Origin: an uncultured virus (IMG/VR IMGVR_UViG_3300020197_000011)
Taxonomy: Duplodnaviria; Heunggongvirae; Uroviricota; Caudoviricetes
IMG/VR virus record: IMGVR_UViG_3300020197_000011
Length of the DNA stretch: 64,000 nucleotides
Reading direction: 5' to 3' (one strand)
The notes below the pieces were generated by a model that worked only from the letters and a program-made list of their open reading frames with translations, did no database searches and had not been told where the DNA came from. Below, in pieces: positions 19,322 to 29,630 of this stretch (positions are counted from its first letter, which is position 1; the number at the start of each line of letters is the position of its first letter). The position numbers and the translations under genes were made by a program.

Positions 19322-19765
19322 TTATTCAATATTATATACTTTTTTCTTTTGATGTTCTGGAATAACTCTATCCAGTTTGATAGTAAGTAGTCCATCAACG
19401 AAAGAAACATCACCGACTACAACATCATCAGAGAGTGTCCAGGAACGAGTAAATGCTCGTTTGGCTAATCCTCGATGGACATACTGATCTACAACATCAT
19501 CTTGACGTTTTGTTTCAATTGTGAGTTTATTCCACTCACTTGAAACCTCAATATCTTCCTTTTTATAACCAGCAAGAGCAACTTCCAATCCGAAGTTTGT
19601 CTCACTTTCTTTAATTAGATTATATGGAGGATAATTTGTGTGCGTCTCAAACGCACTATCAAATCTCCTAAACCACTCATCCAATCCAATACTATTTCTT
19701 TGAATAGCACTTAAATACTTTTCTGTTTCTGGAATAGACAGAGTAATTGAATTTGCGCCAAACAT
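19322..19765 (-). CDS. hsp20: small heat shock protein
   Basis: NYPPYN, EVALAG, HRGLAKRAF.RSW.L, DGLL.I alpha-crystallin motifs. Confidence 0.95.
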   Translation of the reverse strand: MFGANSITLSIPETEKYLSAIQRNSIGLDEWFRRFDSAFETHTNYPPYNLIKESETNFGLEVALAGYKKEDIEVSSEWNKLTIETKRQDDVVDQYVHRGLAKRAFTRSWTLSDDVVVGDVSFVDGLLTIKLDRVIPEHQKKKVYNIE

Positions 19766-19834
19766 AATAGACCTCCTAAAGCGTCTGTGTGATTGTGGAT
19801 CCTTTCGGCATCCACTACTAATTATAATAGATTA

Positions 19835-19861
19835 TAAAAAAAGCGGGATGTTGTTTCCCGC
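19835..19861 (-). terminator. rho-independent terminator after regA
   Basis: GCGGGA-AACAACA-TCCCGC followed by a T run. Confidence 0.75.
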
Positions 19862-19867
19862 ATCTTT

Positions 19868-20308
19868 TCATTCGGTTTCTACTGCCTTACCTTTTTTGCC
19901 AATGTTATACTTTTGCTCAAGAATCCAATCTCCCTTATCCTTATAAGAAAGAACTTTAATCTGATTAAGTGGAGCAATATCAGCGATCGAATCTTGTTTA
20001 ACAACAGTAATCAATCCCCAGTCAGCTAACAAACGGGTGATACGATTACGACGCTGAACATCATTGATTGTAAGGTTTGCGTGCTTACCGTCCAGGGCAA
20101 ACAGTTCCTTAAAGTGAACAAGGTAATATCTACCTTGCTTATGAAGGATGTGGCAACTTTGATAGAGTTTTTTCTCCTTCCTTGATGCAACTCCGATACG
20201 AGTTAAAGTCTCACGAACTTTTAAGAAGTCATCTGGTTCGTTCAAAAGAACTTCAACCATCATATCAGGATTCCAATTTACTTGGGGTTCAATTGTTTGA
20301 GTAGTCAT
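19868..20308 (-). CDS. regA: translational repressor RegA
   Basis: DDFLKVRETLTRIG...LYQSCHILHKQGRYY.VHFKE. Confidence 0.97.
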   Translation of the reverse strand: MTTQTIEPQVNWNPDMMVEVLLNEPDDFLKVRETLTRIGVASRKEKKLYQSCHILHKQGRYYLVHFKELFALDGKHANLTINDVQRRNRITRLLADWGLITVVKQDSIADIAPLNQIKVLSYKDKGDWILEQKYNIGKKGKAVETE

Positions 20309-20679
20309 TTTGTTCCGCCAGTTTCAAGTCGTTGTTTAATAAAATCAAGTTGTGATTTCGTAAGAATCTTCAAAGCTTGAGATGCTTTTTCATTACTATA
20401 ACCATAGTATTGTTTAACGCATTCTAAATCTTTGACTTTATCTTTTCGGATCCAAGGAGAAAATCTCTTTCGTTTCCTCAGAGTATTTATATAAAACGAA
20501 TATTGCATGTCTTTGTCAAGAGAAGAATGAATATTCATCTCATTTGCAAAAAGAATACAATCAATGTGTCCAGACAAACAACGATTGACAATATAAGGAG
20601 GATAAGATTTAATATCCTCGGATAAATCTTCTTTTGTGAAGTTAATAGAATTTAACCAATCTTTAAGTTCGTAAGTCAT
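20305..20679 (-). CDS. gp62: clamp loader small subunit
   Basis: LNSIN.TK...YPPYIVNRCLS...ANEMN...YYGYS; located directly upstream of regA. Confidence 0.93.
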   Translation of the reverse strand: MTYELKDWLNSINFTKEDLSEDIKSYPPYIVNRCLSGHIDCILFANEMNIHSSLDKDMQYSFYINTLRKRKRFSPWIRKDKVKDLECVKQYYGYSNEKASQALKILTKSQLDFIKQRLETGGTK

Positions 20680-20680
20680 C
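20632..20680. repeat. 49-bp perfect direct repeat, copy 1 (gp62 codons 1-16)
   Basis: ttttgtgaagttaatagaatttaaccaatctttaagttcgtaagtcatc, identical to 21260-21308. Confidence 0.97.
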
Positions 20681-20682
20681 TC

Positions 20683-21243
20683 TTATTTAGCCTTCAAGAC
20701 ACATACAAATAGGTATCTAATTTGATCATTTACAGTTATTGGACTAGAAGCATGAAAAGTATCTGCACTGTAGAGAATCACTCTTCCTGGATTATATTGA
20801 ACTGCAAGTTCACATTCTCCAGACTTATTTGCAAATAAAGTTTCACCATGCCAATTTTGATCCCAGTGATGATTTACATAATATGATAAAATCGTACATC
20901 CAGGCCAAACATTATCAGTATGAAAAACATGTCCTGATAGTGTTGGAGTAGATGCTAAAAACCAACTTTCTTTGATTTCAACATCATCACCAATGTGTTC
21001 TTTAACAATCATTTGCACATTTTCATTTTCAAATATACCAAATTTATTTACTTTTTCTTCGTTTAGATTAGATTTCAAATAATGTTGGAAATTATGCGAA
21101 AAAGGAGATGATGTAATCTTATTGATCATGTAAGTTGATTTATGAGAAAAAACCATATGGTTTTCTCTCTCAACTGCGGAAAAAACATCATCATATATGT
21201 GAACAATATTACCATCAGTTGTCGATAAACTTTTATATTTCAT
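20683..21243 (-). CDS. 2OG-Fe(II) oxygenase (prolyl-hydroxylase-like)
   Basis: HTD...W.GETLF...H...R jelly-roll motifs. Confidence 0.85.
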   Translation of the reverse strand: MKYKSLSTTDGNIVHIYDDVFSAVERENHMVFSHKSTYMINKITSSPFSHNFQHYLKSNLNEEKVNKFGIFENENVQMIVKEHIGDDVEIKESWFLASTPTLSGHVFHTDNVWPGCTILSYYVNHHWDQNWHGETLFANKSGECELAVQYNPGRVILYSADTFHASSPITVNDQIRYLFVCVLKAK

Positions 21244-21244
21244 A

Positions 21245-21307
21245 TTACCAACCTTTGGGTTTTGTGAAGTTAATAGAATTTAACCAATCTTTAAGTTCGT
21301 AAGTCAT
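21245..21307 (-). pseudogene. truncated duplicate of the gp62 5' end (20-aa relay ORF)
   Basis: MTYELKDWLNSINFTK+PKGW*; ATGA overlap with the upstream stop; its TAA is 1 nt before the next ATG. Confidence 0.85.
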
Positions 21308-21308
21308 C
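21260..21308. repeat. 49-bp perfect direct repeat, copy 2
   Basis: Identical to 20632-20680. Confidence 0.97.
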
Positions 21309-22410
21309 GGATAATTTGAATCTCATCATCATCTGTCCACAACTCGACTTTGTTGCGGAACCTACCTTCTTCTTTGAGTTTTTCATATCTCTTAGTTGCT
21401 TTCTTTTTCCACCAAGAGATAATGTTCTCAAGATAAAACTTATCCCAATTTTGTCCTCTGCGAAGTTCTGCTTGCTCACCAAGGATCACTTCACGAACAT
21501 TTTCATACCCATAGTCTGAGATATAAAATCTCTTTTTTTGAGTTAAAGAAAACGCAGCATCAATAACAGAGTTAAACTCATCAAGTTTATCTTTATCTTG
21601 CAACGAGTTTTTGATAATTGAAATCATCTTTGTCTGTCGCTTCATTTTCTTAGAAGAAGCTTTATTATCTGTGAGTGGAGTGTTGTTATTTAGATATGTA
21701 AAACGATCGTGAAGTTTATGAAAAACATCATCATGAAGCAATGGAAGAAACTTACTTTCGGTGAGTCCCTTGTATCTCATGAAAGGTTTCAAACCATCAT
21801 ACTGAGATGCATCTGTAGTAGAACCATAGAGTGATGTCGTTTCGAACAAAGCAATTTCTTTTTGAAATGACTCATTTAACACTTCTCGCGCATAATGTGA
21901 GCAGCAAAAAAGTGCAAGCAATTTACCACCAAGATAGTTATAACCGAAAGGTTGAGAAGGAACAATCACAAATCCCATCGCAGCATGACGATTGAAGACA
22001 GTAAGATCTGGTTGCTTTCCCAACCAAAGATTACGTGGTTTAGAATTAATTGTTGGCGATCCAAAGCGAATAAACCCAACTACTTTGTTAGTTGTCTCCT
22101 CATAGATTACCCACTTAAGTTCTCTGCCAGGAATATTTTGTTCGTTGTTATGAGAAGAAACTGCCATCAAAAGATTTGTATAAAACTTTTGATCAAGGCC
22201 ACCCCTCCCAACACGAACGATCTTAAACTTCATGTCCTCAGGATGAATATCTTCATTAAAGAACTCATCATGAAGAGGAAGTAAAGAAGATTCTGATCTT
22301 ATAACTTCCTTTTTAACAAATCGAAGATAATCTTCAATATTTCTCATGTTAGAGAAATAATCAATAAACTCATCTGCAGCCCAAACTGCGTCACTTTTAC
22401 TAATAATCAT
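21304..22410 (-). CDS. DUF4338/DruA-like protein
   Basis: IPGRELKW...GFIRFGSP...IVPSQPFGYNYLGGKLLAL...TTSLYG...SQY resembles DUF4338 motifs. Confidence 0.65.
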   Translation of the reverse strand: MIISKSDAVWAADEFIDYFSNMRNIEDYLRFVKKEVIRSESSLLPLHDEFFNEDIHPEDMKFKIVRVGRGGLDQKFYTNLLMAVSSHNNEQNIPGRELKWVIYEETTNKVVGFIRFGSPTINSKPRNLWLGKQPDLTVFNRHAAMGFVIVPSQPFGYNYLGGKLLALFCCSHYAREVLNESFQKEIALFETTSLYGSTTDASQYDGLKPFMRYKGLTESKFLPLLHDDVFHKLHDRFTYLNNNTPLTDNKASSKKMKRQTKMISIIKNSLQDKDKLDEFNSVIDAAFSLTQKKRFYISDYGYENVREVILGEQAELRRGQNWDKFYLENIISWWKKKATKRYEKLKEEGRFRNKVELWTDDDEIQIIR

Positions 22411-22955
22411 CGTTTATACATTGGGATACTAATACTTAACCTATCGGTTAGTGGTTCAAAAAGGTGATACTGCAAAGAAGGTATGAATATTGAATTTCCT
22501 GGTTCAAGGATAACTTGTTCTTTAATACTTAGATATTCATTTATATTTGCCCATCCAGAGAAATCACCAAATTCATTATAAACTGTAACTTTGGATTTGC
22601 CAATGCATTGAACAATTAAATTATCACGATTATCGGCATGAACTGAAAAAGAACGACTACCATACTTTCCCATGTAGATATGTGACTGAGCATCTACATT
22701 ATGATCTCTCTCAATTTCTTCAATCAATTGTCGGACATTTGGAGTTACACAACTTCCATGAACAATGAATGAATAACAATTTTCCCAGAAAGATCTTAAC
22801 TTGTCCATATCATGACGTTTTTCCCAAGAAGTTGTTATGATGTAATTTTCTGGGGGAATTTTTTCACCAGTTCCTGGATGAATTAATTGAACCACATCAT
22901 CAGTTACATAAGTGGTTTCAATAAAATACCAAATCTCATGAAAAGTAATAATCAT
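22407..22955 (-). CDS. JmjC/cupin-family oxygenase
   Basis: SFSVHADNRDNLIVQC.GK...LEPG.SIFIP...H...RLSIS. Confidence 0.85.
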   Translation of the reverse strand: MIITFHEIWYFIETTYVTDDVVQLIHPGTGEKIPPENYIITTSWEKRHDMDKLRSFWENCYSFIVHGSCVTPNVRQLIEEIERDHNVDAQSHIYMGKYGSRSFSVHADNRDNLIVQCIGKSKVTVYNEFGDFSGWANINEYLSIKEQVILEPGNSIFIPSLQYHLFEPLTDRLSISIPMYKR

Positions 22956-23896
22956 TTGAACTCACACTCTGCCATAATTTCAGTCAACGCTGCTAGGAGG
23001 TTAATTTCCTGATCAGCAACGAACGCAATTTGGTATTGATACTTAGCAATAACAAGAACGGCAGCGGGAATAGTGGAGGGTACAAGATTATCATACAAGG
23101 CGTCATAAACCCTGCGAAGAATGACAGAAGAATCGTTGTCCAAGTTGGATACCACCCACTTTCGTACCTCTGTGAAGTTTTTATCTTTGAGACATTTAAT
23201 GAGATCATTTATCGAAATATCAGAGAAAGTTGCAAGAATTCCAGAATCAATTTTACCGCCAGTTGAATAACGTTGACATTCATTCAAAACTCGACGCCAA
23301 TCTGGGAAATGAGAATTAATGAGTTGAGCAAGAACCTTTGGATCATATTCAATACCTTCAGCATCTAAAATATCTTGTAGGCGCTTGAAGAAAGATCCTG
23401 CTAGTTTGGCTTTTTCTTTTCCTTTGATTGAGAAATCAATAACCGCACAACGAGAGTGAAGAGGTTCAATGATTTTGTTCTTATAATTGCAGGTAAAAAT
23501 AAAGCGGCAGTTATTATAAAATGCCTCTATGTTTGCCCGCAACAGAAGTTGTACATCGTTTCCTGTATTGTCTGCCTCATCAATGATGATGACTTTATGT
23601 TTAGAAGATCCTGTAAGTGAAACTGTCGAAGCAAAATTCTTTGCTTGATTTCTCACAGTATCTAGAAAACGTCCTTCATCAGATCCGTTGATGACATAGC
23701 AATCTGCACCCAACTCATTGCAAAGTGCCTTAGCAATTGTAGTTTTACCAACACCAGGAGGGCCAGCAAGAAGGAGGTTTGGAATCTCCCCCCTCACAAC
23801 AAACTCTTTGAATGTTTTTTTAGTATCATCAGGGAGAATACAATCATCAATTACTTGAGGACGATACTTTTCCACAAAAAGAAATTCACTTGCCAT
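22952..23896 (-). CDS. gp44: clamp loader large subunit
   Basis: EKYRP, GPPGVGKTT, IIDEAD, PLHSRC. Confidence 0.97.
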   Translation of the reverse strand: MASEFLFVEKYRPQVIDDCILPDDTKKTFKEFVVRGEIPNLLLAGPPGVGKTTIAKALCNELGADCYVINGSDEGRFLDTVRNQAKNFASTVSLTGSSKHKVIIIDEADNTGNDVQLLLRANIEAFYNNCRFIFTCNYKNKIIEPLHSRCAVIDFSIKGKEKAKLAGSFFKRLQDILDAEGIEYDPKVLAQLINSHFPDWRRVLNECQRYSTGGKIDSGILATFSDISINDLIKCLKDKNFTEVRKWVVSNLDNDSSVILRRVYDALYDNLVPSTIPAAVLVIAKYQYQIAFVADQEINLLAALTEIMAECEFK

Positions 23897-23899
23897 AAT

Positions 23900-24412
23900 T
23901 TAGTTTACCCAGTCAGGTTTTCGTTGCGGCATACGAAGATAATTAGATGCAACCCAAGGTTTGGATGCAATATACATCTTGTAAGCAGTAAAAGTGTCAA
24001 TGCTTTCGTCAAGTTTATACTCATTTGACATTGCTCGTGCAAAAGGAGTTACCTTAGTAATTTTACCCTTAGGAAAAATATAATATGCATGAATAAGAGT
24101 ATTATAGCACGAGTGCATTTTATTGTATCGCAAAAAATACTCATCGCACAAATTCATTCCCCATTTGATCAACCAATAGGCATTATCAATTGACTTTGCA
24201 GCCCATTGAGTGCATGGATGATTGCGAAAAGCACCCTTCTCAGTTGCATATGGAGTACCATCTGTTTTGGGAAGAGTGCCATAATTATGATACCATTTAG
24301 ATCCCACGATAGAAAGCATTTGACAGCACTCTAGTGGCATCTTAACGATATGTTTATCTGGTAAACAAATAGCCGATTCGGCAGGATAAGGATTAGTTAC
24401 GAAGATATTCAT
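23900..24412 (-). CDS. pyrimidine-dimer DNA glycosylase-like protein
   Basis: MNIFV...DKHIVKMPLECCQMLS...NHPCTQW...EY..RY.K.H. Confidence 0.8.
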   Translation of the reverse strand: MNIFVTNPYPAESAICLPDKHIVKMPLECCQMLSIVGSKWYHNYGTLPKTDGTPYATEKGAFRNHPCTQWAAKSIDNAYWLIKWGMNLCDEYFLRYNKMHSCYNTLIHAYYIFPKGKITKVTPFARAMSNEYKLDESIDTFTAYKMYIASKPWVASNYLRMPQRKPDWVN

Positions 24413-24981
24413 GTTACCAAGTCGGTATTAATGATAATTCTATTTTTATATTCTGCTGGAGAACATCCCGTATGCAAATAACTACCATCAAAAAATAAAA
24501 GTCTATTTTCTTTTGGTTTAATTTTTTGAACTATATTTAAAGATGAAAAGTCAATATTATTATAATATTGATTGCAACTAAAGCATTGTTTATCAAAAAG
24601 AATTGTTTCAGCATCCGAATCTGTAATATAAAAAACTGATGCAACATGAGGAAAATATTCATCAACATGTATTGTATGTTGATATTTTTCTGGAGAATAT
24701 GTTACCATATCAATTCTTGATTTTGATATTTGATTGCAATTAGTAACATCTAGTAATTGACTATAAAATCCCGTTAAAATTTGAAAAAGATAGCAATTAT
24801 TTGATTGATAATTTTCAATTATCCATTGATCAAATCCATAAGAATACAAAGTATCATTTGGATCATTTGGCCAAGTAATATCTTTTTTAAAATTCCAAGA
24901 AAAATTATAATCTTCAATAATTTCTTTTACCCTAGAAAAATATCTAGGAGATAAAAAGTTATCAATGACAACTGGTTTCAT
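24409..24981 (-). CDS. 2OG-Fe(II) oxygenase-like protein
   Basis: Start MKPVVIDNFL at 24981; HVD...PKENRLLFFDG..LH...R.IIN. Confidence 0.8.
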   Translation of the reverse strand: MKPVVIDNFLSPRYFSRVKEIIEDYNFSWNFKKDITWPNDPNDTLYSYGFDQWIIENYQSNNCYLFQILTGFYSQLLDVTNCNQISKSRIDMVTYSPEKYQHTIHVDEYFPHVASVFYITDSDAETILFDKQCFSCNQYYNNIDFSSLNIVQKIKPKENRLLFFDGSYLHTGCSPAEYKNRIIINTDLVT

Positions 24982-24982
24982 A

Positions 24983-25675
24983 TTATCCGAAAGTTGAATC
25001 AGGTTCAAGGGCGATATAATATTCAACATTATAATCGGTATTCTTGAACTTTGAAAGCAGTTTTTGTGAAACTACAACTTCATATGTACCAGGAAGAATT
25101 TTAATATTCTCTACTTTGAAATTAAACACAAACTCATCATTTGTTTCTCCCACCACGATAGAGAAATCATTAGAGGTATCGTTCTTTTTATCACGAACGA
25201 CAAGTTTTACTACACCTGCTTCACCAACCACAGACAAATCTGGAAGTTGATAAATTGCAGCAGCTTTTAGAAGTTTATCAAGTTCTTTAGTATCAAGAAG
25301 GAAACAAACATCTTCACTTGGAAGTGAGATGGACTTGTCAGGGGGAGTAACGATAACGTTAGGATCAGCAAAGAAATACTTTGATCGTGACTTACCTTCC
25401 TTGATCATAACATAACCATCATTAGCAAAATCAAGTTCTGCACTTTGATGAAGATTAAGTCCATTCAAAAATTGATTCAGATCGTAGATGCCAAAGTCTT
25501 TAGGCAGATCTTCTTCAATAGTTGCCTCCGCAAGAATATTCTTCATCACAGAAATAGTTCGAAGTTGTTTACCTTGCTTAAACAAAATTGACTGATTGAT
25601 AGAGGAAAAATTCTTCAGAACAGTCAGGGTTTTATCAGAGAGTTTCATAGTTTGAGGTTTGAGTTTCATGATCAA
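24983..25675 (-). CDS. gp45: sliding clamp
   Basis: MKLS..T..VLKNFSSINQSI, FGIYDLNQFL; the true start may be a downstream Met. Confidence 0.96.
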   Translation of the reverse strand: MIMKLKPQTMKLSDKTLTVLKNFSSINQSILFKQGKQLRTISVMKNILAEATIEEDLPKDFGIYDLNQFLNGLNLHQSAELDFANDGYVMIKEGKSRSKYFFADPNVIVTPPDKSISLPSEDVCFLLDTKELDKLLKAAAIYQLPDLSVVGEAGVVKLVVRDKKNDTSNDFSIVVGETNDEFVFNFKVENIKILPGTYEVVVSQKLLSKFKNTDYNVEYYIALEPDSTFG

Positions 25676-27495: not shown

Positions 27496-28039
27496 AAGTA
27501 AATGTTTTATTTTTAACTTTAGTATCAAATTCACCAGTTCTACCTGGTTTCATTTTTCCAACTTTGACATTTTTACCTTTACCAGGCCAAGATGTCTTAG
27601 AAGTTCCTTTAAGAGTTGCACCACTCTTTGGTTTACGTTGAATCAATACCGAATCTTGATCATCTTTTGATGAACCTTTAACATTACGCTTATGCTTTAG
27701 TCCACCTTCAGTTCCAAGTTTCTGAATTGTTTTTTTAAATCTTTTCTTACCCATTTTACCAGAAGAAACTACATGTGATTTCTCACCAACTTTCTTCTCT
27801 TGTGGGGTTCCTGGATTTTCGGTGTAACGTCCAGAGACTTTTGTAGGCCCTGGAAGGCCTGCTCCTCTGATTCTTCTTTCTGTTCTAGCAGATCTTGCTT
27901 TATTTTCTTTTTTAGATTTATCTCCTCTTTGTCCAGAAAGAATTGCTGTTCCACCCTTTTCAGTCTTTCTCATTACACGAGTAAGAGAAGTCTCTTGAAT
28001 AGAATAACATTCTAACATAAATTCTTGAAAAGTCTTCAT
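27485..28039 (-). CDS. basic protein with a T4 internal-protein-type capsid-targeting leader
   Basis: N-terminus MKTFQEFMLE compared with T4 IPIII MKTYQEFIAE; highly basic body. Confidence 0.7.
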   Translation of the reverse strand: MKTFQEFMLECYSIQETSLTRVMRKTEKGGTAILSGQRGDKSKKENKARSARTERRIRGAGLPGPTKVSGRYTENPGTPQEKKVGEKSHVVSSGKMGKKRFKKTIQKLGTEGGLKHKRNVKGSSKDDQDSVLIQRKPKSGATLKGTSKTSWPGKGKNVKVGKMKPGRTGEFDTKVKNKTFTYEN

Positions 28040-28052
28040 GATACTTGTTCAA
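28025..28052. repeat. direct repeat (26/28 identical to 28582-28609) covering the gene start
   Basis: ttg(a/g)aaagtcttcatgatactt(g/a)ttcaa. Confidence 0.85.
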
Positions 28053-28121
28053 TATTTTCACAAATTATAAATTCTTTTCTTTTTGGTAAGGACATTTTCA
28101 ATCATTTAAGAGCTAAAATAT

Positions 28122-28535
28122 TTAGAATATAAGTTTGTCCGAATTCTCATAAGGATTTGGAAAATCATAATTCAAATCTGGATGTAAATGTTTGAATTTT
28201 AATTTATAAACTAAATCATCCCATAATTGTTTTTTTGTACAAGGAGTTTTAAACAGTAAAAGATATATTACTTTATATTTGTTAAGTGAATCTACAAGAA
28301 ATAGAAAAAATTTAGCAAATTTAACTAAATCAGTTTCATTTCTATCAAAAATTTCTATTCTTTTTGTTATAGTGGGATTTAAAATATTTTCTTCTTCATT
28401 TAGATCAACAAGTATTAACTCTACTAAAATTAGAACATTATCTTCTTGTTCTAAGGTTTTATAATTAAAATAATAATTGTAATAATGTTTTCTAGTTTTT
28501 AATGAAAATTTATAATTGGTTCTTTCTGTTCTCAT
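28122..28535 (-). CDS. very AT-rich hypothetical protein (insert)
   Basis: 137 aa, AAGGT SD, flanked by repeats. Confidence 0.55.
   Translation of the reverse strand: MRTERTNYKFSLKTRKHYYNYYFNYKTLEQEDNVLILVELILVDLNEEENILNPTITKRIEIFDRNETDLVKFAKFFLFLVDSLNKYKVIYLLLFKTPCTKKQLWDDLVYKLKFKHLHPDLNYDFPNPYENSDKLIF
28141..28163. repeat. 23-bp perfect direct repeat (with 28566-28588)
   Basis: gaattctcataaggatttggaaa. Confidence 0.9.
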
Positions 28536-28601
28536 AAATATTAACCTTAAAATATTAGTTCATTAGAATTCTCATAAGGATTTGGAAAGTCTTCATGATA
28601 C

Positions 28602-29630
28602 TTATTCAAATTCTCTTTTACGAGCTTCATCAACAAGTTTTACAAAGTCTTCTATATTATAGACAGAACCATTGTGTTTGACTGTTGTAACCCTCTGAGA
28701 TTTCTCTGTGTCGAACAGTTTGTTGACATAGAAGATTAATCTAGCCATTGTTCGTTTGTTTCCAGCTTGGATGTTTGTTGGTCTCTTGTGTAGAGTAATT
28801 TCCTGATCCATGAAAACTACTTGGCCATCTTTCCAGTTTTGTGTGTACACATATTTGTCCTGAAAGATTATTTTTTTAATTTCATTCAAGATCTTATCAC
28901 TTTCTTCTCGGGAGAGTCCAACAAATCCATCAAAAGTAAAACTCGGAATCTTCATTCCAGATAGGCCAGATGCAGTCTCAGTGTAAAGGGAAGTCTCCAT
29001 TCCGTCAAGAGGAACCATGTTGTAACGGAGCAAAGATGCCTGAATATCGTTAAGAGCAGGAGCCATTTCATTGTCAATCCACCTATGTTTTACCACAAGT
29101 TCTTTGATCATACTCTTCATGTCTGAACTCAAAGATTCATAGGCATCATGAGTACATAGAAACTGTGTTTGACTGTTCTCGGAATCACTCACACTTTTAA
29201 GGCCAATGACTCTTTGTGCATCCTCAAATGCACACTGATCACTGTGCCAATTTAGTTCTCCATTCTGGAACATTCCAGTAGGACGACCTTTATCTCCTTG
29301 TATGTAACTTACTACCGAAGTTGCCTTGTACATATCATCTTTCGCATATGCTTTTGTGACGTACATGAGGTGAACATATAGTTCCCTCCAATGTCTACCA
29401 GTGACTTTTTTTTCAGTCACTTTTTCATGCATCAAAGCCATACTAGGATCACCCCAAGAGCTCATACAATCATAGAGAGTTTTTGTTGGGATATTTTCGT
29501 CAAGAAAAACAATACACTGGGATGCACACAATCTACCCAATTCTAACAATTCTTCCTTGCAATTCCAATCAATGTCATAAACTTCAACACCAACTGAGGA
29601 GTCATAATTCTGTAATGATCTTGTCTTCAT
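28602..29630 (-). CDS. TauD/TfdA-family dioxygenase
   Basis: WHSD...TQF...AY..L...W.DG.VVFMD...LHKR. Confidence 0.88.
   Translation of the reverse strand: MKTRSLQNYDSSVGVEVYDIDWNCKEELLELGRLCASQCIVFLDENIPTKTLYDCMSSWGDPSMALMHEKVTEKKVTGRHWRELYVHLMYVTKAYAKDDMYKATSVVSYIQGDKGRPTGMFQNGELNWHSDQCAFEDAQRVIGLKSVSDSENSQTQFLCTHDAYESLSSDMKSMIKELVVKHRWIDNEMAPALNDIQASLLRYNMVPLDGMETSLYTETASGLSGMKIPSFTFDGFVGLSREESDKILNEIKKIIFQDKYVYTQNWKDGQVVFMDQEITLHKRPTNIQAGNKRTMARLIFYVNKLFDTEKSQRVTTVKHNGSVYNIEDFVKLVDEARKREFE

Follow-up and report, generated by a model that had tools for sequence, protein, structure and literature searches.

In T4-type phages, recombination between short direct repeats gives rise to deletions and mini-circles, as described for the promoter and stem-loop cassettes termed PeSLs in the available passages of PMC2839356 and PMC4122927, and free-standing homing endonuclease genes (seg, mob) sit as single genes between conserved, often translationally linked genes, with a start that overlaps the upstream stop (PMC2988022, available part). 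Here we describe a locus with likenesses to both, in a stretch of DNA from an uncultured virus (IMG/VR record IMGVR_UViG_3300020197_000011; the 64-kb stretch as a whole is called the window), where a gene for a predicted 2-oxoglutarate (2OG)-Fe(II) oxygenase stands between two identical 49-nucleotide (nt) copies of the start of gp62, the gene of the clamp-loader small subunit. The window is part of a T4-like cyanomyovirus whose nearest isolates are Synechococcus phages (~75% nucleotide identity), and all genes of the locus lie on its minus strand. We consider it probable that this lake-water phage gained the oxygenase gene by ectopic illegitimate recombination at two junctions, and not through a dedicated cassette system.

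Like the PeSL modules, the window holds a T4-type accessory gene between short direct repeats, recombination between which would delete the gene or release a circle, and in both cases the repeats account for insertion/deletion differences among close relatives. In the passages available, however, PeSLs are promoter and stem-loop cassettes present in many copies within hyperplastic regions, whereas the repeat of the window is the coding start of an essential gene and is confined to one site; unlike a PeSL, it would have been made by the insertion itself, and no promoter or terminator was predicted inside it. From the homing endonucleases the locus differs in its cargo, which is an oxygenase and not a nuclease, with no means of spread of its own.

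In the 'moron' and mosaic-joint ideas of Hendrix and Hatfull, illegitimate, short-homology recombination is the source of phage mosaicism and gene gain. The locus resembles such events in the few bases shared between unrelated genes, in having no recombinase of its own and in the placing of a new gene within an existing transcription unit; a donor locus with abrupt ends of homology, shared sequence at the upstream junction and an uninterrupted target in relatives were all found. Its peculiarities are that both parents of a join can be named (gp62 codons 13-16 and the tail of a DUF6267 gene) and that the stagger of the second join has doubled an overlapping stop/start junction, leaving a chimeric mini-ORF. 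The process is of a known kind, and this form of it, with the stop/start of an essential gene duplicated and a chimeric mini-gene, was not found described in the literature seen: no published account of a duplicated gene start flanking a captured gene in cyanophages came up in a search that covered listings and a few passages, which is no proof of absence. Single-gene gain by strictly lytic T4-like phages has mostly been inferred from distant genomes with decayed joints; here neither joint has decayed, the donor context can be identified and the target is uninterrupted in relatives, so that the event can be reconstructed base by base, in a phage that is abundant in many lake samples. It also suggests a rule that can be checked in other phages, namely that an overlapping stop/start junction accepts a gene only if the junction is duplicated.

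A duplicated gp62 start on both sides of an oxygenase gene

A repeat search of the window found a pair of 49-nt direct repeats, 100% identical and 628 nt apart from start to start (coordinates in Table 1), of which these are the only two copies, both at the gp62/oxygenase site. The window has 36 direct-repeat families of at least 22 nt; in the 20 largest, no other family has copies that are all 100% identical, and simple arithmetic gives ~1e-20 as the number of perfect 49-mer pairs expected by chance in 64 kb. Read in the direction of the genes, the repeat consists of one nucleotide and codons 1-16 of gp62 (G + ATG ACT ... ACA AAA), and the 579-base-pair (bp) insert between the copies is composed of 16 nt, an open reading frame (ORF) of 561 nt and 2 nt. 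In the upstream copy the ATGA overlap with the DruA-like gene persists, and the frame runs on into CCC AAA GGT TGG TAA, forming the ORF MTYELKDWLNSINFTKPKGW*, whose TAA lies 1 nt before the ATG of the oxygenase gene (21243). The oxygenase stop, TAA, is followed by GA, by the G that opens the downstream copy and by the ATG of full-length gp62, with a gap of 3 bases; this gp62 matches its Pfam family with 47 bits (cut-off 27) and keeps its synteny with gp44, regA and gp43. The sequence-only reading that had first pointed to the identical copies of gp62 codons 1-16, the retained ATGA overlap, the PKGW* ending and the 1-nt gap was correct in every number.

A direct repeat of the target on both sides of an inserted gene is likewise left by transposons, as target-site duplications, and seen with integron cassettes; the usual target duplications of transposons are far shorter than 49 nt. 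The locus differs from both in that the insert holds no transposase (the oxygenase is its sole ORF of at least 60 amino acids (aa) in the ORF list and Pfam scan), that no terminal inverted repeats flank the 579 bp, as had also been claimed, that neither an integrase nor an attC-like palindrome was found at the insert, and that its left end is a fragment of a gene neighbouring the donor gene. Promoter-like sites were not in excess (23 found, 19.5 expected).

An exact search of IMG/VR for the 49-mer returned four contigs from four metagenomes, each with two copies 628 nt apart, which are 100%, 100%, 99.98% and 97.7% identical to the window, one of them possibly being its own source. A 639-nt Logan contig spanning 20651-21289, that is, the insert and 30 nt of each repeat, was present with 0 differences in 4/4 runs labelled as lake water metagenomes. 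On the gp62 side, separate perfect Logan contigs run on to 20661, 30 nt inside the repeat, and those of the DruA-like side, where listed, begin at 21279 (run X1) or 21282 (run X3). Logan contigs are built from 31-letter words, and breaks 30 nt into the repeat are what the graph of such words is expected to give for a true two-copy repeat of 49 nt. An assembly artefact had been named in advance as the thing to fear. In such a case the oxygenase segment could lie on a separate molecule, wrongly threaded in at the repeat, and the genome would run from the DruA-like gene through one repeat into gp62. The Logan contigs alone are indecisive on this point, since an empty allele plus a circle would have the same 31-letter words as the filled allele, but the linear order is identical in the four IMG/VR contigs, the fusion of gp62 to DUF6267 at the left end of the insert must exist as DNA given the 639-nt contig in all four runs, and the depth of the insert, at 0.5-1.0 of that of its flanks, is far too high for a stray fragment; we regard an artefact as highly improbable. 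With the same structure in four IMG/VR contigs and four lake-water runs, the insert and its repeats are thus confirmed as real DNA, and not the artefact of one assembly.

The fourth of these contigs (L006) is otherwise identical to the window; its 131 differences are packed at 21900-23000, in the JmjC-like gene and towards the 5' end of the DruA-like gene, with none at 19600-21900, and they read as a fresh patch of homologous recombination.

The assignment of the inserted gene as a 2OG-Fe(II) oxygenase is right, as judged from conserved residues and a predicted fold. Its homologues comprised 595 cluster representatives at E <= 0.001, 150 at E <= 1e-10 and six at E <= 1e-30, with four close ones among metagenome proteins (P0001, 89% identity; P0002, 78%; P0003, 76%; P0004, 45%), and no match in a tblastn search of 50,697 phage records at E <= 1e-5. 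In an alignment of 81 sequences, the motif H108-x-D110...H164...R176 has H108 and H164 without exception, while D110 and R176 reach at least 90% conservation; of these sequences, 76 match PF13640 (2OG-FeII_Oxy_3) at E <= 0.001, the window protein itself reaching 22.5 bits, under the 27-bit cut-off. The structure model built from the 81 sequences (pLDDT 95.8) has PolD, PasI, PHD2 and other 2OG-dependent oxygenases as its top PDB folds (E ~1e-6, TM 0.6-0.69). Thus, the HxD...H iron triad, the basic 2OG-binding residue, the family match of the homologues and the double-stranded beta-helix fold all agree with what had been proposed from the letters, and the protein belongs to a large, functionally unassigned set of cyanophage 2OG oxygenases. 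An earlier model from five sequences was poor (pLDDT 49.9) and was set aside.

The DUF6267-oxygenase locus and the uninterrupted junction in relatives

A scan of metagenome contigs with the oxygenase alignment brought up just one contig, known already, whereas a search of IMG/VR with such an alignment identified a contig (L092) with a homologue of 78% aa and 82% nt identity, directly 5' of which lies a DUF6267 gene of 325 codons (PF19782, E 2e-78). This gene ends in ...FSHYNFTLPKGW (...HYNFTLPKGW) and leads through TAA-N-ATG into the oxygenase homologue. L092 reads AACTTCACA CTT CCCAAAGGTTGGTAA C ATG where the window reads AACTTCACA AAA CCCAAAGGTTGGTAA T ATG (aacttcaca-ctt-cccaaaggttggtaa-c-atg against aacttcaca-aaa-cccaaaggttggtaa-t-atg), and the pairwise homology starts at TAACTTCACA and ends at TA[A/G]GA, two bases past the oxygenase stop. 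Outside the aligned span homology is absent, with gp62 sequence in the window and DUF6267 and another gene in L092. The first 16 nt of the insert correspond to the end of a DUF6267 gene, its stop and the spacer (15/15 bases in L092), so that the PKGW* tail and the one-base stop/start spacing are relics of a DUF6267-oxygenase donor locus, and the 20-codon ORF, which had been taken for a translational relay, is a chimera of gp62 residues 1-16 (or 1-12) and a DUF6267 C-terminus. Two earlier claims do not hold against this comparison: the insert is not a Shine-Dalgarno sequence plus ORF cassette, and the capture did not newly wire the oxygenase into a translation chain, the TAA-N-ATG link being already present in DUF6267-oxygenase loci and thus imported.

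DUF6267 matches occur in 469 phage records, mostly of cyanophages. In 77 IMG/VR loci fetched around such genes, the C-terminus was reached in 60, with tails ending in PKGW* in 16/60 and in NFTKPKGW*, the last eight residues of the relic ORF, in 8/60. Three loci (L101, which is the same as L092, L102 and L103) have TAA-N-ATG and an oxygenase homologue behind DUF6267; a DUF6267 gene of the same type stands in L104, L139 and L159, but there the next gene comes with no oxygenase in between. None of the 80 gp62 loci surveyed (see below) contains DUF6267, nor does the window (best E 0.14), and none of the 77 DUF6267 loci contains gp62, gp44 or regA. As the two kinds of locus are mutually exclusive in the survey, the capture must have been ectopic and have needed two joins. 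A single unequal crossover was considered and dropped, no parent with the order DUF6267-oxygenase-gp62 having been met in the 80 gp62 loci or the 77 DUF6267 loci.

The target of the insertion was followed in the best 80 of at least 597 IMG/VR loci with gp62, onto which the window proteins were mapped. A DruA-like gene lies upstream of gp62 in 20/80; three of these are window-identical contigs with the insert, 16 have the DruA-like gene abutting gp62 and one (L081) has another ORF in between, that is, the two genes abut in 16 of the 17 non-identical loci. The junction was read in 10 of those 16 and in the isolate Sf-CH5, and in L015-L019, L042, L064 and Sf-CH5 it has the form ...ATTAT[A/C]CGATGACTTACGAAC...AACTT[C/T]ACAAA[A/G]GAAGAT. 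Taking one repeat and the insert out of the window gives exactly the empty junctions that were read, in which the DruA-like gene and gp62 share ATGA. In the closest empty relative (L015), identity to the window is 91.5% for gp62 and 77% for the DruA-like gene, no near-identical empty contig having been found.

These junctions, together with the intact PF16790 gp62, bear out the proposal that a gene was captured into the tightly coupled gp44...gp62-regA chain with gp62 kept whole, and the empty single-copy alleles that it foretold are indeed there. Other cargo behind the 49-nt duplication, which was equally expected, did not turn up in the 77 non-window-identical loci among the 80, and the word 'recent' cannot be defended from 49 nt when the nearest empty allele is only 91.5% identical in gp62. 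That the filled state is ancestral and the empty junctions are all secondary deletions is extremely improbable: deletion between the repeats would be easy and traceless, but only insertion can give rise to a second gp62 start joined to a DUF6267 tail, the oxygenase occurs at gp62 in 3/80 loci, all of them window-identical contigs, and the empty form occurs in lineages with 82-96% identity in gp62 as well as in the isolate Sf-CH5.

The neighbourhood of DUF6267 (L092:4900-7387, L102-L104, L139, L141, L159) carries many copies of an intergenic unit of 20-80 nt, with a ...CCCCCTTGTG... stem, then GTATCTTGGCCATGTTGAGAGGAATCACC and then ATG, which sits before small genes. These units look like the cyanophage counterpart of the PeSL promoter/terminator cassettes.

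Proposed route of capture and possible reversal

In the route that we favour, the donor would be the DUF6267-oxygenase locus, elsewhere in cyanomyovirus genomes, where the oxygenase ATG lies one base past the DUF6267 stop. The upstream join would lie at gp62 codons 13-16 (AAC TTC ACA AAA, N-F-T-K), which match the conserved N-F-T-[K/L] codons of the DUF6267 C-terminus; the N-F-T-(K) codons are all that the gp62 and DUF6267 partners share at this junction. A growing or broken DNA end within these codons would pair with a 10-12-nt match in DUF6267 (AACTTCACA[AAA]) and be copied on through the oxygenase gene, and with the join at this place the last four DUF6267 codons, the stop and the whole oxygenase gene would be copied in. 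The downstream join would lead from the second base past the oxygenase stop to the base before the gp62 ATG, and as copying would re-enter the recipient 49 nt upstream of where it had left, those 49 nt would be present twice. Two template switches, or a join-copy event, in recombination-dependent replication are the likely means; in T6, microhomology-linked tandem repeats are reported to arise (PMC13096335, available part). A plain insertion at the ATGA overlap, where the stop of the DruA-like gene and the start of gp62 coincide, breaks one of the two genes, and therefore only products in which the junction is duplicated or replaced would be viable. Selection would have retained the staggered product, which keeps both the DruA-like gene and gp62 whole, with the 20-codon gp62/DUF6267 chimeric ORF and two tight stop/start junctions as by-products.

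Homologous recombination between the 49-nt repeats would delete 628 bp and restore the ancestral junction, and contig depths give a hint that it does. The depth of the insert contig in runs X1-X4 was 17.5, 25.6, 63.2 and 66.6, against 21.8-25.9, 24.3-34.6, 71.9-135 and 77.7-135 for the perfectly matching flank contigs listed; the insert is shallower than every listed flank contig in X1, X3 and X4, and not clearly so in X2. A second, minor allele with a small patch of eight differences at 21604-21697 (depth 11.4, 41.9 and 33.2 in X2-X4) shares the perfect contigs next to the repeat, and no diverged copy of the insert was placed at a likeness of at least 90% in the Logan contigs of the four runs. 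These depths hint at a near-identical strain without the insert in the same lakes, at roughly 20-40%.

Two joints in these contigs were rejected as deletion candidates. The joint 20489->21286 (X3 only; depth 2853; short side of 30 letters) is read as a contig of other phages that was placed on the second repeat copy and not as a deletion, and the joint 20260->20383 (4/4 runs; short side of 27 letters) belongs to a diverged relative, with 6 other letters in 59 in X1 record 2, and is not the 628-bp deletion. The 628-bp deletion was seen in no contig, nor could contigs of 31-letter words display it.

A Campbell-type origin, as put forward for the PeSL mini-circles of T4-type phages, would make the locus a cycling cassette, with a mini-circle of one 49-nt gp62 start and the oxygenase integrating at the resident gp62 start. 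Integration of a one-repeat circle would yield exactly the order repeat-insert-repeat, mini-circles between nearby direct repeats of PeSLs are documented in phi1/RB49 (available passages of PMC2839356 and PMC4122927), and the hint of an insert-free allele fits. Making such a circle, however, would already take both illegitimate joins (one between gp62 codon 16 and the DUF6267 tail, one between the oxygenase end and gp62 position -1), so that it explains nothing extra; the repeat is coding sequence and not a promoter/terminator cassette, it lies at this site only within the window, the 77 other gp62 loci show no other cargo behind it, and a circle junction is not visible in contigs of 31-letter words. 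We regard this origin as unlikely. A broader idea, which we put forward only tentatively and rather doubt, is that the oxygenase is a switchable module, such that recombination between the repeats would keep making insert-free genomes and circles, both alleles would persist in lakes, and duplication of the junction may be a general route by which T4-like cyanophages add or drop single genes, including homing endonucleases, in coupled essential operons.

Several points weigh against capture by two illegitimate joins, and against its reversal, as set out above. At the downstream junction, the alignment with L092 shows no clear microhomology, and L092 differs from the window at three bases after AACTTCACA (CTT and AAA, respectively); the 19-nt junction motif CCCAAAGGTTGGTAAYATG occurs in IMG/VR only in the four window-type contigs and L092, so that the true donor was not found. 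With L092 differing there and no other donor contig to hand, the length of the microhomology, 10-12 nt, is only inferred. The scar is compatible with template switch, break repair or circle integration and with more than one order of events, and the donor locus may have lain in the same genome or in that of a co-infecting phage. No word of its own would come from an empty allele or a circle, the repeat (49 nt) being longer than the 31-letter words, and the depth difference is only a hint; a strain that carries something else at this position could produce it as well, there being 29 loose ends beyond those listed. Finally, the 20 lake-metagenome runs listed as carrying the stretch include 0 RNA runs, which bears on coupling and expression.

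Variation between gp44 and gp62, operon context and neighbouring features

In 61 loci, the distance between gp44 and gp62 runs from an overlap of 4 nt, as in T4, up to 2505 nt; the interval is a hot spot of gene gain and loss, a hyperplastic slot in the clamp-loader operon. In L081:3465-3998, an ORF of 177 codons lies exactly at the junction of the DruA-like gene and gp62, with no duplication; its N-terminus (YVYAYL...PYYIGKG) is GIY-YIG-like by eye, it matched no Pfam family and no solved structure (best E 0.49), with matches only to PHROGs without a function (phrog_15526, E 1e-19), and its being a nuclease is a guess. In L091:2098-2698, an HNH endonuclease gene (194 aa; phrog_953, E 1e-68) stands directly after gp44, with a perfect 20-nt repeat (TGGAGTGTGAATTCAAATGA) on either side that duplicates the gp44 3' end and its ATGA overlap. 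The second copy forms the last six codons and stop of the HNH gene together with the overlapping ATG of the next gene, so that the nuclease ends in ...MECEFK* like gp44, and the small gene 3' of it adjoins gp44 elsewhere (e.g., in L056 and L059). This is a parallel scar that follows the same logic as the duplication of the window; insertions that duplicate a junction number two cases in the 80 loci (49 nt in the window type, 20 nt in L091).

These nucleases bear on a variant of the favoured route that differs in its first step, in which a homing endonuclease of a co-infecting phage would have cut near the DruA-like/gp62 junction and the break would have been repaired by microhomology-primed copying from the DUF6267-oxygenase locus. 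The GIY-YIG-like motif of the ORF at this very junction in L081, the HNH gene with a duplicated junction after gp44 in L091 and the habit of T4 free-standing endonucleases of occupying such intergenic slots (PMC2988022, available part) speak for it. Yet the L081 ORF has no Pfam or structural match, the insert of the window holds no endonuclease gene or relic of one, and one break gives two ends at one position, which by itself does not explain a stagger of 49 nt, so that we hold a triggering break to be quite unlikely.

The features of the locus are collected in Table 1.

Table 1. Features of the gp62/oxygenase locus, with window coordinates
Feature	Coordinates	Strand	Basis
Upstream 49-nt repeat copy, relic gp62 start	21260..21308	-	Repeat search; empty junctions of relatives
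Downstream 49-nt repeat copy, working start of full-length gp62	20632..20680	-	Repeat search, ORFs, Pfam
Candidate microhomology AACTTCACAAAA (N-F-T-K) at the upstream junction	21260..21271	-	AACTTCACA common with the L092 DUF6267 3' end; NFTK with the DUF6267 tails of 8 loci
16 nt of donor origin, CCCAAAGGTTGGTAA+T: PKGW codons and stop of DUF6267, 1-nt spacer	21244..21259	-	15/15 bases match L092
Chimeric 20-codon ORF MTYELKDWLNSINFTK|PKGW* (gp62 residues 1-16 and DUF6267 tail)	21245..21307	-	Relay role inferred only
2OG-Fe(II) oxygenase gene (predicted), 186 aa, captured	20683..21243	-	Conserved residues, Pfam, fold
GA, last donor-derived bases 3' of the oxygenase stop	20681..20682	-	Homology to L092 ends here (window TAAGA, L092 TAGGA)
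gp62, clamp-loader small subunit, intact	20305..20679	-	PF16790 Phage_clamp_A, E 4e-12; at least 597 IMG/VR relatives
DruA-like (DUF4338) gene	21304..22410	-	PF14236 DruA, E 4e-10; phrog_19197, E 1e-164
Coupled chain gp44 - JmjC-like - DruA-like - relic ORF - oxygenase - gp62 - regA	19868..23896	-	Coordinates, families

On the minus strand the genes follow one another in the order gp45, a 2OG oxygenase-like gene, denV, gp44, the JmjC-like gene, the DruA-like gene, the 20-codon ORF, the 186-codon ORF, gp62, regA, hsp20, two small ORFs and gp43. ATGA overlaps join gp44 to the JmjC-like gene, the JmjC-like to the DruA-like gene, the DruA-like gene to the relic ORF and gp62 to regA, and the remaining links of the chain are gaps of 1 nt (relic ORF to oxygenase) and 3 nt (oxygenase to gp62); a terminator-like hairpin lies 3' of regA (19843-19861). 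In T4, gp44 and gp62 are translationally coupled (PMC2988022, available part). A hand-over of ribosomes from the DruA-like gene to the 20-codon ORF, the oxygenase and gp62 is plausible from this arrangement, because the relic ORF retains the native overlap of its start with the DruA-like stop and ends as close to the oxygenase ATG as the DUF6267 gene does in the donor.

The replication operon of the window also contains a gene for a JmjC/cupin protein (22407-22955) and, between gp45 and denV, a second, weak 2OG-oxygenase-like gene (24409-25029), so that three accessory genes of oxygenase type or related to defence (Druantia DruA-like, JmjC/cupin, 2OG-like) stand among essential replication genes. 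Downstream of the clamp-loader genes, the interval between regA and hsp20 is another repeat-flanked variable slot in three relatives, where repeats of 22-46 nt (TTAGTATTCAACAAGTAATACTCTTGTTAGTATTCA and variants) bracket ~1.2 kb (L028:2985-4158, L069:1595-2842, L077:2845-4074). Elsewhere in the window, at 28016-28609, repeats of 37-50 nt with 82-84% identity and a spacing of 425-557 nt probably represent tandem paralogous small genes.

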